Made by a program: the position numbers and the translations under genes. A model generated the notes under the pieces. It had not been told where the DNA came from, ran no database searches, and saw only the letters and a program-made list of their open reading frames with translations. From Minisyncoccia bacterium (GTDB lineage Bacteria; Patescibacteriota; Minisyncoccia; Phycocordibacterales; UBA9973): a DNA stretch of 64,000 nucleotides. The stretch lies in the NCBI GenBank assembly GCA_044229265.1, contig JBGATK010000005.1, positions 14,963 to 78,962 of the forward strand. The letters run 5' to 3'. Position 1 is the first letter of the stretch, and each line of letters starts with the position of its first letter. Positions 17,210 through 56,095 of the stretch are shown piece by piece.

Positions 17210-18895
17210 TTAACTTTGGTGAGGCATGCCGTGGTCTTCACGAGCAATATGATCACGAATATAATCTATAGAACCAGCAACTTTTTTACCAGGATTAAAA
17301 ATATTTTTTGAGTCAAAAATATTTTTAGTTTGAGAAAAAAGTTCTAAAATTTTTGGACTGAAAATTTTATATAAATATGGTGTTCTGATAATACCGTCAT
17401 TGTGTTCAGCAGTAGTCGAACCATGATATTTCGCAACTAAATCATAAACTTTTTCTCCAAGCTCAAGAATTATTTTTGATGTATCTTCCCGTGAAAAATC
17501 CATAAGGGGAATAATATGGAAATTACCATCACCTGCATGTCCAGCTATGGTGAAAGTAATATCGTATTGTTCTAAAATTATATCAATTTCTGGTAAGAAT
17601 TTTGGCAAAAATTCTGGACGAACTATTATGTCATCGATGAATGGTGCGGTATGTTTATCTTTGACATGCTGGCGAAGTAGAGCAAAACTCTGACGACGAA
17701 TATCCCAATACTTACCTGCTTCAGCTTCGCTTTTAGTTATGTGTGTTTTTAAACGGAAATGACGAATTTTTTCTTTTAATTTTTTACATTCTAAATCTAC
17801 ATCTTTTTCATTTTGCCCAGCAAATTCAACAAGTAAAATAAGTTTTGGAAAGCCACTAGAAACCATCATCCAAAATTCTGGCAAAAAGCTCCACATGAAT
17901 TTTACCATTCCAATCAATCCTTTATTTTTCAAAAAATCTGGGAAAAAATTCACAGCGAGCTTCATGGTCTTGTCGTCATAAGTCTCCAGTGTCTCAGGCT
18001 TCATTTCTAAAATTTCATCTACAAGTCTACCAAGTGGACCCAAATCTTTCATAAAAACTACAACTAATTTTGAATGTTTGTGCTCAGGCACTAAACGAAA
18101 AGTTATCTCTGTAGTAATTCCAAGTGTGCCTTGCGAACCGACTAATAATTTATTTAAATCAAAAATATTTTCTTTATTTACATTCCATAAATAATATCCA
18201 GCGGAATTTTTGCTAACTTTTGGTTTAGCTTTGGCGAGCTCATTTTCGTTTGCTTTTACTAAATTAAAAATATTTTTATAAACCTGGCCTTCAAAATCAT
18301 TTTGGGCAATTTTCTTTTGTAATTCTTCTTCGTTCAATGGCTTTACTACATATTCATTGCCATCAGCAAAAATTACTTTGGCTTCCATAACATAATCTTC
18401 CGTTTTTCCATATTTAAGTGTGCGTTCACCTGCAGAATTATTGCCATACATACCACCCATAGCATTTAAACTTTTCGAAGCAGTATAACAAGGCAAGATT
18501 AAATCCCTCTCGAGGGTTAATTTTTCAAAATCGCGGTAAAACATCCCAGGCTGTACAGTTATCCTATCCTCATGAAAAGAAATCATTTTATTCATATGGC
18601 GAGTAAAATCCATAATTATACTCTCGCCTATCGCTCCACCACTCATATCTGTACCCGCACAACGAGCCGTAATAGAAATATTCCCATATTTTTGTGCGAG
18701 GTCTTGCCTCGCACAATTTTCACTTACCCACTGTACTAATTTTTTAACATCATTTGCATCCACAGGAAAAACTACCAATTTTGGCATAACTTCAAAAACA
18801 CTCGCATCGCGCGAATATTTTTTTAATACCTCTGGAGAATCCTCCACCTCTCCATTAAAAAATTTTTGTATTTCTTCTTTCAGTGAAATTTCCAT
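17210..18895 (-). CDS. FAD-linked oxidase (GlcD/D-lactate dehydrogenase-like)
   Basis: PCMH-type FAD-binding domain plus a C-terminal FAD-oxidase domain. 561 aa. Confidence 0.7.
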   Translation of the reverse strand: MEISLKEEIQKFFNGEVEDSPEVLKKYSRDASVFEVMPKLVVFPVDANDVKKLVQWVSENCARQDLAQKYGNISITARCAGTDMSGGAIGESIIMDFTRHMNKMISFHEDRITVQPGMFYRDFEKLTLERDLILPCYTASKSLNAMGGMYGNNSAGERTLKYGKTEDYVMEAKVIFADGNEYVVKPLNEEELQKKIAQNDFEGQVYKNIFNLVKANENELAKAKPKVSKNSAGYYLWNVNKENIFDLNKLLVGSQGTLGITTEITFRLVPEHKHSKLVVVFMKDLGPLGRLVDEILEMKPETLETYDDKTMKLAVNFFPDFLKNKGLIGMVKFMWSFLPEFWMMVSSGFPKLILLVEFAGQNEKDVDLECKKLKEKIRHFRLKTHITKSEAEAGKYWDIRRQSFALLRQHVKDKHTAPFIDDIIVRPEFLPKFLPEIDIILEQYDITFTIAGHAGDGNFHIIPLMDFSREDTSKIILELGEKVYDLVAKYHGSTTAEHNDGIIRTPYLYKIFSPKILELFSQTKNIFDSKNIFNPGKKVAGSIDYIRDHIAREDHGMPHQS

Positions 18896-19809: not shown

Positions 19810-20700
19810 TTACTTTAGATTATTAAAAAGTTTTAAGCGGTTTTCTACTACTTTTTCTACAGCTTCTACTCCATGAATTGCTATTTTATATGGTGCAATT
19901 TCATTTGGATTTTCGTGCATGGCTTTATGCTCTGCTTCTACAAAAGCCTGCCTGATTTCACTGTTGATGTGCACGATAGCTACACCAGATGCTATAGCAT
20001 TTGTAAAATCCTCATCACGAAGTCCGGAACCACCGTGAAGCACGAGTGGCACACCTGCTACTTGCCTTATTTGTTTTGCGAGATCAGAATCTATGTGTGG
20101 TTTACCAGTTTTAATTAAACCATGCACAGAACCGATAGATGGAGCAAGTAAATCTATGCCTGTTTCTTCGACAAATCTTTTTGCATCTTCCATTTTGGTT
20201 AAAACACCAGCACCTTCGGGAATGCTTTCTTTGATATCACTACCTTTACCTATGAATCCCAGTTCTGACTCTACTAAAATATCTCTGCCTGTTTGCATAG
20301 ATACTTGTCGTGCGTAATCCACGCATTTTTTTGCAAGAGCTACATTTTCTTCAAATGGCAAACCTGCACTGTCTATAATCACAGCATCGAAACCTGCATC
20401 GATACATTTCTTTACACTTTCAAAATTTTCATGATGATCAGCGTTTAAAAATATCGGGTAATTATCGCGCTCACGAATTGTTTTAACGAGTGCCACTACT
20501 TCTTCGATACCTAAAAATTTCTCTTCTCCTGGTGATACACCAATAATCACAGGCACACTTAAGTTCTTTGCAGCATTATAAATAGCATGCAAGCCTTCTA
20601 AATTTGAAATATTAAAATGCCCTATAGCCACACCCTTTTCCTCTGCTTCTTTTATATACTCGCGCAGTGATTTTAGTTTTTCCATGTAAATATTATACAA
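19810..20700 (-). CDS. fba: Class II fructose/tagatose-bisphosphate aldolase
   Basis: VAIGHFNISNLEG...PVIIGVS and LVLHGGSG class II aldolase motifs. Confidence 0.8.
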   Translation of the reverse strand: MYNIYMEKLKSLREYIKEAEEKGVAIGHFNISNLEGLHAIYNAAKNLSVPVIIGVSPGEEKFLGIEEVVALVKTIRERDNYPIFLNADHHENFESVKKCIDAGFDAVIIDSAGLPFEENVALAKKCVDYARQVSMQTGRDILVESELGFIGKGSDIKESIPEGAGVLTKMEDAKRFVEETGIDLLAPSIGSVHGLIKTGKPHIDSDLAKQIRQVAGVPLVLHGGSGLRDEDFTNAIASGVAIVHINSEIRQAFVEAEHKAMHENPNEIAPYKIAIHGVEAVEKVVENRLKLFNNLK

Positions 20701-22180
20701 GCTCTTTAAGTAATTTCATAACCAATTGTGGATTTGCAGAGCCACCACTCTCTTTGATGACCTTACCTACGAGAGACATAATCGCATTTTCTTTACCACT
20801 TTTATACGTAGCTACAATTTCAGGATTTTCACCAATTATTTTCTGAACTATTTCTTTTAGGGCGCCTTCATCGTTTTGTTGAAGCAGATTTTTCTCTGTC
20901 GCTATCTTCATAGGGCTTTCGTCATTCAAAACTATCATAGCCAAAATGTCTTTTGCTCCGCGTGATGAGATTTTATTTTCGGCAAATAGTGTTATTAACT
21001 CAGCAAAATTTTCAGTACTTGGAATACCAACCTCACCCGACCTACGGCCACCCTCTCCTGTCCAGGAGAGGGGCTGGGGGTGAGGTGAATTTTTAAATAG
21101 ACTTTTCAAGATACCCATCAAATCTGAAGTTATGAAATTCGAAGCGGTTTTAATAGTTTCTTTATTTTTTAATATTTCTGCCACTTCTTCAAACCAAGTT
21201 GCGAGCTCTTTATCATTTATATACACTTCAGTGTCTTCAGCTTTGATGCCGAAATCATTCATGTACCTTGCACGCTTTGCTACTGGTAGTTCTGGAAGTT
21301 CTGACTTCATTCTAACTAGATCAAAAGCCTCATGGAGTCTAAGTTTTGGTAAATCAGGATCTGGGAAATACCTGTAGTCTTCACTACTTTCTTTTTTTCT
21401 CTGCGATATTGTTTTTTGTTTGCCTTCATCCCAGCCACGAGTTTCTTTGACTATCTCACTTTCCCTGCCTTCTTCCCAGAGCTTGATCATTCTATCTACT
21501 TCATGCTTGATAGCCTTCTCTACACTCTTGAAAGAATTTAAATTTTTGACTTCCACATACGCAGACCATTTTTTGTCTTTATCTGGACTGACGGAGACAT
21601 TGGCCTCCACTCGCATTTCACCCTTTTCCATATTTGCATGACTTGCTCCCAAATATTGCAAAAGCAACTGATACTCTTTAGCAAAATTACTTGCCACACG
21701 AGAAGCTTCGTCAACACTTTCGAAAGTATGAGGCTCGGTAACGAGCTCTGAGAGTGGCACACCTGCACGATTGAAATCTATCAAAGAATTTTCACCCACA
21801 TGCTTGTTATTCCCTGTGTCTTCTTCTAAATGCACGCGAGTTATGTCCATGTCTGCCAATTTGCCACCCTTCACTATCGGGTATTTATACTGCGAGATCT
21901 GATAGCCCTTGGGTATGTCAGGATAAAAATAATTCTTGCGATCGAATTCAGAAAAGTCGGCTATTTCACCATTTACCGCTAGCCCTATTTGAATCATCTT
22001 TTCTATAGCACCCTTATTCGGCACAGGCAAAGTTCCTGGGTGCGCCATACATACTGGGCAGACATTTTTATTTGGCTTCTCCTCCTCTGGATCATTCTTG
22101 CAAGAGCAAAACATCTTGGTTCTAGTCGCCAGTTCCGCGTGAATCTCGAGCCCTATAGTTGTGTAATACTTTTTCTCCAT
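20693..22180 (-). CDS. gatB: Asp/Glu-tRNA amidotransferase subunit B
   Basis: YYTTIGLEIHAELATRTKMFCSC N-terminus and a GatB/YqeY C-terminal domain. Carries an in-frame GC-rich insertion (see repeat 21031..21085). Confidence 0.9.
   Translation of the reverse strand: MEKKYYTTIGLEIHAELATRTKMFCSCKNDPEEEKPNKNVCPVCMAHPGTLPVPNKGAIEKMIQIGLAVNGEIADFSEFDRKNYFYPDIPKGYQISQYKYPIVKGGKLADMDITRVHLEEDTGNNKHVGENSLIDFNRAGVPLSELVTEPHTFESVDEASRVASNFAKEYQLLLQYLGASHANMEKGEMRVEANVSVSPDKDKKWSAYVEVKNLNSFKSVEKAIKHEVDRMIKLWEEGRESEIVKETRGWDEGKQKTISQRKKESSEDYRYFPDPDLPKLRLHEAFDLVRMKSELPELPVAKRARYMNDFGIKAEDTEVYINDKELATWFEEVAEILKNKETIKTASNFITSDLMGILKSLFKNSPHPQPLSWTGEGGRRSGEVGIPSTENFAELITLFAENKISSRGAKDILAMIVLNDESPMKIATEKNLLQQNDEGALKEIVQKIIGENPEIVATYKSGKENAIMSLVGKVIKESGGSANPQLVMKLLKELV
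21031..21085. repeat. GC-rich nested imperfect palindrome inserted in-frame in gatB
   Basis: Outer arms CCTCACCC/GGGTGAGG and inner arms CCCTCTCCTG/CAGGAGAGGG around a short loop. The local GC is far above surrounding sequence. It encodes ...HPQPLSWTGEGGRRSGEVG... within GatB. Confidence 0.6.
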
Positions 22181-55298: not shown

Positions 55299-55373
55299 TG
55301 GTGCCGGGGGTGAGAATCGCACTCACGACCTATCCCTCTTCAGGGGAGAGCTCTACTACTGAGCTACCCCGGC
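55299..55373 (-). tRNA. tRNA-Phe-like (anticodon GAA), non-canonical features
   Basis: Minus-strand sequence GCCGGGGTAGCTCAGTAGTAGAGCT CTCCC CTGAAGA GGGAT AGGTC GTGAG TGCGATT CTCAC CCCCGGC A CCA. CCA is encoded. There is a C-U mismatch at 27-43, G at position 37 and G at T-loop position 55. Confidence 0.6.
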
Positions 55374-55642
55374 ATTTTTATTTTAACAAAACCATCTTTT
55401 ACTATCTTCTCTATGTAATCATGTCTTTTAAATTTTTTCAACCTTTTCTCAATATATCTTACCTCACTCAATGTTTCAAATTTTTGTGAAAAAACTAATT
55501 TTAATTTTCCCATCTTACTGGTTGAAGGTGTATAACCTCCATTATGATGCCTAATTCTTTCATCTATATCAGTAGTGCTACCTATATAGTAATTCCCCTT
55601 TTCACTTTGTAATATATATACGTATGGCATATATTTTAACAC
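55364..55642 (-). CDS. Small GIY-YIG nuclease family protein (paralog of 42789..43049)
   Basis: MPYVYILQSEKGNYYIGSTTDIDERIRHH..., ending in KDGFVKIKMPG. The last three codons and stop overlap nt 1-10 of the tRNA. An alternative start at 55630 gives MPYVYIL, as in the paralog. Confidence 0.8.
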   Translation of the reverse strand: MLKYMPYVYILQSEKGNYYIGSTTDIDERIRHHNGGYTPSTSKMGKLKLVFSQKFETLSEVRYIEKRLKKFKRHDYIEKIVKDGFVKIKMPG

Positions 55643-55644
55643 TG

Positions 55645-55698
55645 AGCCCCGACGCTTTCGGTCGGGATCCCGACTTTACGTCGGGGCTACCCCGGCAT
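55645..55698. repeat. CCCCGAC-family nested palindrome (copy C) plus a 13-bp duplicate of the tRNA 5' end
   Basis: AGCCCCGAC-GCTTTCG-GTCGGGA|TCCCGAC-TTTAC-GTCGGGGCT, then GCTACCCCGGCAT (55686-55698), which is identical to 55363-55375 at the tRNA 5' end. Confidence 0.6.
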
Positions 55699-55712
55699 AT
55701 ATGAATAATAGA

Positions 55713-56013: not shown

Positions 56014-56053
56014 ATGTTAAATTATATAAGGTTTTTTATTGTTTCGCCCTCAT

Positions 56054-56095
56054 AGCCCCGACGTAAAGTCGGGGAGCCGACAAGTATCGTCGGCT
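56054..56095. repeat. CCCCGAC-family double hairpin (copy B), solo copy upstream of tRNA-Arg
   Basis: AGCCCCGAC-GTAAA-GTCGGGG followed by AGCCGAC-AAGTATC-GTCGGCT. Same architecture as copy A. It ends 15 bp before the tRNA 5' end. Confidence 0.6.

Follow-up and report, generated by a model that had tools for sequence, protein, structure and literature searches.

The gatB gene and its in-frame palindrome

The DNA analysed here, which we call the window, is a 64,000-nt stretch (GC content 34.6%) of contig JBGATK010000005.1 from a Minisyncoccia bacterium, and our subject is a short, GC-rich palindromic element that is read in frame within its gatB gene. The open reading frame (ORF) at 20693-22180 on the minus strand encodes GatB: Pfam recognizes PF02934 (GatB_N) at residues 8-285 (E = 2e-100) and PF02637 (GatB_Yqey) at residues 334-494 (E = 6e-31), solved GatB chains in the PDB match it by sequence (E = 3e-110), and an AlphaFold2 model of the protein gives template modelling (TM) scores of 0.66-0.75 against GatB structures. 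The gene, the element and its surroundings comprise the following features.

20693-22180, minus strand: gatB coding sequence, 495 aa, the element's host gene (ORF list, Pfam, PDB matches, AlphaFold2 fold)
21029-21085, minus strand: inserted segment as translated, 19 codons CCT...GTT, P366-V384, PHPQPLSWTGEGGRRSGEV (codon comparison with the empty orthologue L001)
21030-21038, no strand assigned: left arm of the outer stem, ACCTCACCC, which is also the family's terminal inverted repeat (AACCTCACCCC...GGGGTGAGGTT) (sequence, fold)
21039-21049, no strand assigned: hairpin 2, the variable module, GGCC-GTA-GGTC on the coding strand and GACC-TAC-GGCC on the plus strand (fold)
21051-21072, no strand assigned: hairpin 1, the conserved family core, CCCTCTCCT-GTCC-AGGAGAGGG (sequence, fold)
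21078-21086, no strand assigned: right arm of the outer stem, GGGTGAGGT, which is also the second G-rich block in the triplex-motif reading (sequence, fold)
21051-21086, plus strand: canonical BoxC/PIT/TMECO reading, antisense to gatB, CCCTCTCCT-GTCC-AGGAGAGGG-GCTG-GGGGTGAGGT (published consensus, E. coli copy)
20990-21136, minus strand: mosaic patch, approximately codons 349-397 (about 45 codons), which holds the element (drop in identity to L001; left flank like P0008)

The element itself comprises 57 bases (21030-21086), contains no stop in the gatB frame, in which it supplies residues 366-384, and is open in three of its six frames. The original prediction, made from the letters of the window, had described a nested GC-rich palindrome at 21031-21085 that is read through in frame and adds roughly 15-20 residues; its coordinates and arm sequences are accurate by sequence, fold and frame, and the addition amounts to 19 codons. 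On the plus strand the two outer arms (21030-21038 and 21078-21086) are complementary, and hairpin 1 has a 9-bp stem (21051-21059 with 21064-21072) closed by the loop GTCC; the three stems of the element read CCCTCTCC, GGAGAGGG and GGGTGAGG. Its GC fraction is 0.67 when scanned over 60 nt and 0.72 over 40 nt, compared with 0.346 for the whole window, which places it among the top GC islands. The 81-nt stretch that we folded has a minimum free energy (MFE) of -36.7 kcal/mol versus -25.4 +/- 2.9 for shuffled sequences (z = -3.9), and none of 200 shuffles was as stable. The window contains the 22-nt core a single time; the expectation derived from 100 shuffles is 0.00 matches.

Two other identities for the segment were considered and dropped. 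A known RNA family was rejected because Rfam, run on the whole window at the gathering score and on 20900-21200 with E up to 10, returned only chance hairpin matches (miRNA, snoRNA). An intein, an intron or a programmed bypass was set aside because the segment is too short, is without catalytic motifs and always keeps the frame.

AlphaFold2, run with 26 orthologues, modelled the protein with a mean predicted local distance difference test score (pLDDT) of 78.8, assigning residues 365-382 values below 50 and no secondary structure and placing them between helices 340-363 and 389-400. According to this model the insert forms a surface loop, disordered and variable in length, that connects two helices in the GatB C-terminal helical region, so that the question of a surface location, raised by the original prediction, is answered by a loop modelled at low confidence. 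The same prediction had put the site in the link between the catalytic and C-terminal domains, and here it was mistaken: the insert lies inside the region matched by PF02637, whose 161 residues (334-494) span 144 profile positions. The C-terminal helical and tail domains of GatB bind tRNA in published structures of GatCAB and the transamidosome, among them 2F2A, 3AL0 and 3KFU.

Relationship to the BoxC/PIT/TMECO family

TMECO is a G/C-rich "triplex motif" that was formerly called BoxC and PIT (Holder et al. 2015, PMC4666352; see also Bachellier et al., 1990s; Hoyne et al. 2000; Kaplan et al. 2016, PMC5100583). The published consensus, CCCTCNCCC N3-6 GGGNGAGGG N3 GGGNGAGGG, allows one stem mismatch; the motif occurs 3,610 times in 262 proteobacterial genomes, in copy numbers that differ between strains, and cyanobacteria have many G/C-rich motifs like it (PMC4666352). 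The same paper describes it as "always located intergenically" in E. coli K-12, with no transposon association and no promoter or terminator activity, and links it to higher sequence variation nearby; the intrastrand triplex was demonstrated in vitro for the E. coli sequence and was undetected in vivo (PMC4666352).

On the plus strand, positions 21051-21086 of the window hold all three TMECO blocks in order, with a first loop of 4 nt and a second of 3-5 nt. The 8-nt block cores are identical to the consensus, but every 9-nt block departs from it at the outer base, and the strict pattern therefore narrowly misses this copy. The E. coli copy in the entC-fepB spacer, CCCTCTCCC-TTCC-AGGGTGAGGG-CTG-GGGGTGAGGG, has the same 8-nt cores as the window's. 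A blastn search with a 63-nt query against 5,426 E. coli genomes gave one weak match (35 nt, 83%, E = 5), which served only to read a BoxC copy, the database being too large for a query of that length. Shared with the family are the blocks CCCTC(T)CC(C), GG(G)AGAGGG and GGGTGAGG(G), their order and the short loops between them, the existence of nested or palindromic double forms, GC-richness regardless of host composition, patchy copy number, the lack of a known associated transposase and a tie to local sequence variability. The differences are that the window's stems have 8 perfect bases rather than 9 (at 9, each block has one mismatch to the consensus), that T/A takes the place of C/G at the end of the block after CCCTCTCC, which marks a low-GC variant, that the described copies are intergenic whereas this one lies within the frame of the essential gatB, and that Patescibacteria are absent from the host phyla listed in Holder et al. 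2015 (PMC4666352). Judged by sequence, the window element belongs to the BoxC/PIT/TMECO family, in a Y form that combines an outer stem with two hairpins, one conserved and one variable.

The family is widespread. The general stem pattern matched at least 120 stretches in viral contigs, with GC fractions of 0.33-0.73, and the low-GC variant (…CCT…AGG…GGGTGAGGTT) matched at least 120 in one-genome-per-species contigs, where the matches listed include Cyanobacteria, Chloroflexi, Armatimonadota, Bacteroidota/Ignavibacteria, one archaeon and at least 15 Patescibacteria loci. We counted 358 copies among the 240 loci retrieved, in which the stems are conserved and the loops variable, and full-length copies terminate in AACCTCACCCC...GGGGTGAGGTT. 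The spacer before the last block is bimodal across the 358 copies (2-7 nt or at least 9 nt), and the 103 distinct long spacers, unrelated to one another in sequence, nearly always self-pair (MFE -6.9 versus -2.5 kcal/mol for shuffles, p = 5e-16). These features identify the variable-hairpin Y form as recurrent in the family and the window copy as an ordinary member of it. Terminal inverted repeats, which together with a target-site duplication mark transposase-derived MITEs, are present, and no flanking duplication was visible beside the roughly 20 full-length copies that we read by eye.

Most copies elsewhere are intergenic, but 5 of the 16 Patescibacteria copies lie within long reading frames. 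Four of these have Pfam domains on both sides, in MurG (L156), Fpg (L191), UvrC (L151) and MgsA/RarA (L224), and a giant protein (L198) holds the fifth; an in-frame copy flanked by Pfam domains is also present in TilS from a Dehalococcoidia genome (L129). The L198 copy, from Kerfeldbacteria, is in frame in an ORF of more than 2,600 aa and seems to follow directly on an apparent intein start (C-V-T-G-D-T...). Tandem or repeated in-frame copies occur in very long ORFs of Dolichospermum (L164) and other cyanobacteria (L174, L157), for example QQPHPQPLSYQGV five times in one of 762 aa and KPHPNPLLEKKPHPNPLL in others of about 1,800 aa. A Vampirovibrionales contig of 7,720 nt (L193) carries Y-form copies with near-identical long hairpins, inverted, at both of its ends, which are probably assembly breakpoints at the repeat. 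The literature that we searched contained nothing specific on in-frame palindromic elements in Patescibacteria or the Candidate Phyla Radiation.

The insert and its flanks among gatB alleles

As orthologues we took the best 120 GatB matches, nearly all of them from Patescibacteria/Paceibacteria where named. In this set a short loop of near-constant length joins SDYxGxKK to LPxxxNFAELI: the extra segment is missing from P0002, the nearest orthologue (475 aa, with 91% identity across conserved columns), and from 116 of the 120, and solved GatB structures likewise have only a short loop at the site. The proposal that the insertion is lineage-specific thus survives the alignment. The element is carried by 3 of the 120, and a comparable segment is found among them only in P0046 and P0050, whose DNA contains homologous elements in the same loop and in the same orientation as the window's. 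The shared form is CACCTC[A/T]CCC..GA-CCCTCTCCTTGG.AAGGAGAGGG-[hairpin 2]-GGGTGAGGTT; hairpin 2 is unlike in all three gatB copies, yet paired in each (GGCC/GGTC, GCC/GGC and GCACCAGT/ACTGGTGC). In the GatB tree the three carriers lie scattered, and insert-free relatives at 77-91% identity exist for each of them. A scan of metagenomes for the element-gatB junction matched 47 stretches, only one of which is a true gatB copy (L281, a close relative of L004), so the gatB insertion is rare in the collection scanned. A profile of the three insert-bearing GatB segments, searched against 5.8 billion proteins, retrieved only short, element-free GatB fragments and is uninformative on recurrence.

Codon-aligned DNA comparisons of the gatB genes, which include L002 (the gene of P0008) and its 94% relative L294, revealed that the element sits in a mosaic patch. 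The window and L001 are 85% identical upstream and 99% downstream of the patch and 64% (56/87) identical within it (p = 1e-8); for L002 and L294 the corresponding values are 96%, 93% and 57% (p = 3e-25). In both pairs identity thus drops locally, between flanks at 93-100%. In the left flank, 43 of 54 positions are identical between the window and L002, genes that are only 72-75% identical overall. All four insert-bearing proteins have D-L/M-x-G-x-L ahead of the insert, and L stands at the first motif position in only 2 of the 116 other orthologues (hypergeometric p ~2e-6, our own calculation). Because neutral drift cannot yield 43% divergence in a 95%-identical gene, a short tract bearing the long loop appears to have moved between gatB genes. 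The patterns of identity suggest that the element probably came, or spread, on a recombination patch and not by clean insertion into the allele of its nearest relative.

In the same loop, P0008 has an AT-rich insert of 15 residues (NSSNNDHKEVEDGII) with window-like flanks (GILKSLFK.S ... GIP). We considered it as a decayed copy of the element; an alignment that allows for GC-to-AT decay gave z = 0.5-1.8 and p = 0.05-0.33, values at which such an origin is not demonstrable.

GC-rich palindromes of other kinds are found elsewhere in gatB orthologues. In L296 and L297 (P0018 and P0048) the NNKH loop, part of the catalytic domain, contains an in-frame palindrome with a ~19-bp stem (CCCCAGGTCGGACCTGTG...CACAGGTCCGACCTGGGG; -42.7 kcal/mol), which adds 15-19 residues and belongs to a different family from the window element; these two palindromes are homologous to each other despite the differing lineages of their hosts. 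L295 (P0101) has, after residue ~337, an in-frame Y-shaped element of window-like architecture with other stems (CTCCCCCT, AGGGGGAG and GGGGGTGGGAG), which reads TCTCCCCCT-GCCGG-AGGGGGAG-hairpin-GGGGGTGGGAG, and at its NNKH loop lies a further, small GC hairpin, CGGGTGT-TGG-ACACCCG.

Origin of the insert and comparable elements

The explanation that we favour, with a probability of roughly 0.7, is that the insert is a passenger, a selfish palindrome of the BoxC/PIT/TMECO family that came to lie in frame in a gatB loop by way of a recombination patch. The element would be selfish DNA of a non-coding type, with no gene of its own, and the peptide now read from it would have no function in GatB. 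Its length is a multiple of three, its frame is open and the receiving loop is a disordered surface loop of variable length, properties that would make it tolerable and because of which 19 residues could be carried along as a passenger. The copy may have reached the window allele, or spread between Paceibacteria gatB alleles, on a short gene-conversion tract, and the primary spread of the family may have involved single-stranded hairpin DNA and a factor acting in trans.

Several observations weigh against this explanation. The right flank does not group the window with L002, as 33 of 48 positions are identical to L002 and the same number to L001, and the donor of the recombination was not found. 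Related copies of the palindrome, which the original prediction had proposed to look for, exist in hundreds of other contigs, but the 64-kb window holds a single copy. Filled and empty sites that form a clean pair were not found, so that only the comparison of copies allows the termini and a possible target duplication to be deduced, and no transposase or mobilising factor is known for the family or turned up here, where no screen near the copies was made. Translation of the segment is presumed from its intact frame. Finally, the L004/L281 pair shows higher conservation in the element than in its flanks (53/54 versus 397/444 identical, p = 0.018), which is weak evidence for constraint or recent conversion.

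The element could instead have inserted directly and independently into the same loop in each lineage, in a transposition-like manner, with imprecise repair and compensatory substitutions accounting for the differences in the flanks. The three element-bearing genes do differ in their junctions, in the loop codons kept and in hairpin 2, the other palindromes in other gatB loops indicate that insertion into such loops is recurrent, and Holder et al. report more local variation beside the motifs. We nevertheless regard direct insertion as unlikely: the four insert-bearing alleles have common flank states that are nearly absent elsewhere, the window and L002 agree at 43 of 54 left-flank positions in genes of 72-75% identity, and the patch in L002 and L294, 43% different within a gene that is 93-96% identical, is beyond local neutral drift.

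The remaining alternatives are far less probable. An assembly or binning artefact, in which GC-rich DNA of another organism was joined chimerically to gatB, deserves a thought because the source of the window is a metagenome-assembled genome and because co-occurring Cyanobacteria and Chloroflexi commonly carry the repeat; we give it hardly any credence, since an independent Logan assembly, of run SRR28480387, carries the same gene with the insert, identical base for base, and since homologous in-frame copies occupy the same loop in three other samples; frame and flanks are, besides, exactly preserved. Scarcely more credible is the idea that the segment goes untranslated, through ribosome bypass or removal from the mRNA, as happens with GC-rich 'byp' elements in Magnusiomyces mitochondria or at the translational gap of phage T4 gene 60. 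In its general look, a GC-rich hairpin this stable within AT-rich coding sequence does resemble a byp. However, the gatB copies (window, L003, L004, L281) and those in murG, fpg, uvrC and rarA are all in frame and stop-free, which counts against skipping, since skipping would not require the frame to be kept; we also see no matching take-off and landing codons beside the element, and Rfam gives no match. It is likewise improbable, if slightly less so, that selection keeps the extra peptide for a function, for example with the Gly/Arg-rich GEGGRRSGEVG as an added tRNA contact. The C-terminal region of GatB is its tRNA-binding part, and the element is near-unchanged in two related lineages (L004 and L281) whose flanks have diverged, but the peptide differs from carrier to carrier because spacing shifts the frame of hairpin 1 (PLSWTGEG versus PLLGKER), the same DNA yields unrelated peptides in unrelated proteins, and the segment, predicted to be disordered, is dispensed with in 116 of 120 orthologues.

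Among known systems, the original prediction had invoked the Rickettsia palindromic elements (RPEs), reportedly described by Ogata et al. in 2000. Both are palindromic selfish DNA that lies in frame in the housekeeping genes of a genome both small and AT-rich, where surface loops tolerate it and where some orthologues have it and others do not, a feature that the window element displays. RPEs, however, are ~100-150 bp long, restricted to Rickettsia and not of the GC-rich triplex type, whereas the window element has 57 bp and belongs to a cross-phylum family; we claim no sequence relationship, and the two are set apart by size, host and family rather than by alignment to an RPE consensus. The comparison therefore stands as an analogy for in-frame selfish insertion and fails as a classification, the element being assigned to BoxC/PIT/TMECO; the parallels support the view that it may work like an RPE while not being one.

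The REP/BIME/REPIN elements (RAYT, TnpA-REP, HUH Y1; PMC3116915, PMC6006769) are also short (20-60 nt), highly repeated imperfect palindromes that occur singly or as inverted pairs, cause no target duplication and are active as folded single-stranded DNA. REPs have a conserved 5' GT[AG]G, flank a cognate RAYT gene and are extragenic by definition (PMC3116915, PMC6006769). The window element, in contrast, has the termini AACCTCACCCC...GGGGTGAGGTT with no terminal GT[AG]G, and GTAG occurs in it only in the loop of hairpin 2, which varies among copies; a RAYT gene was not noticed either, no search aimed at one having been made. GC-rich palindromes also invade AT-rich coding sequences as the GC clusters and byps of yeast mitochondria and as the mitochondrial coding palindromes of Nematomorpha. 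The GC clusters and byps differ in being organellar and unrelated in sequence, and byps are skipped by the ribosome and free of frame, unlike the gatB-type element, which is in frame in every copy.

BoxC/PIT/triplex repeats have been known for thirty years without an established function or movement and have been described as strictly intergenic. The copies described here show that the family extends into Patescibacteria, with in-frame copies in gatB, murG, fpg, uvrC and rarA, and that the gatB element lies in a short mosaic tract common to otherwise distant alleles. Presence and absence alleles with defined flanks offer a testable handle on how such repeats spread, the notion of selfish DNA inside proteins, drawn from Rickettsia, is extended to another reduced, AT-rich lineage, and for annotation the family accounts for odd GC-rich, Pro/Gly/Arg/Glu-rich loops in proteins of uncultivated bacteria. 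A much broader reading, which we put forward as speculation and think doubtful, is that BoxC/triplex palindromes are a pan-bacterial, ultra-small form of mobile DNA that routinely colonises the loops of essential proteins in gene-dense Patescibacteria and then spreads between the alleles of different lineages via short gene-conversion tracts. Equally tentative is the corollary that they behave in a homing-like way without a nuclease of their own. Were this so, these palindromes would quite generally give rise to differences in protein length and to mosaic housekeeping genes across the Patescibacteria radiation.

Two further inverted repeats in the window lie away from gatB. GC-rich inverted repeats of 41 nt, 80% complementary, at 55644-55699 and 56045-56094 surround about 360 nt with an 81-aa ORF; the pair sits between two tRNA genes and adjoins a 92-aa GIY-YIG-like ORF (55364-55642, minus strand), and Rfam gave no match. 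A second GC-rich hairpin, with identical 10-bp stems (TTGTGCGAGG-loop-CCTCGCACAA), is present in two copies, at 427-451 and 18692-18716, which may represent a second small repeat family or a common terminator.

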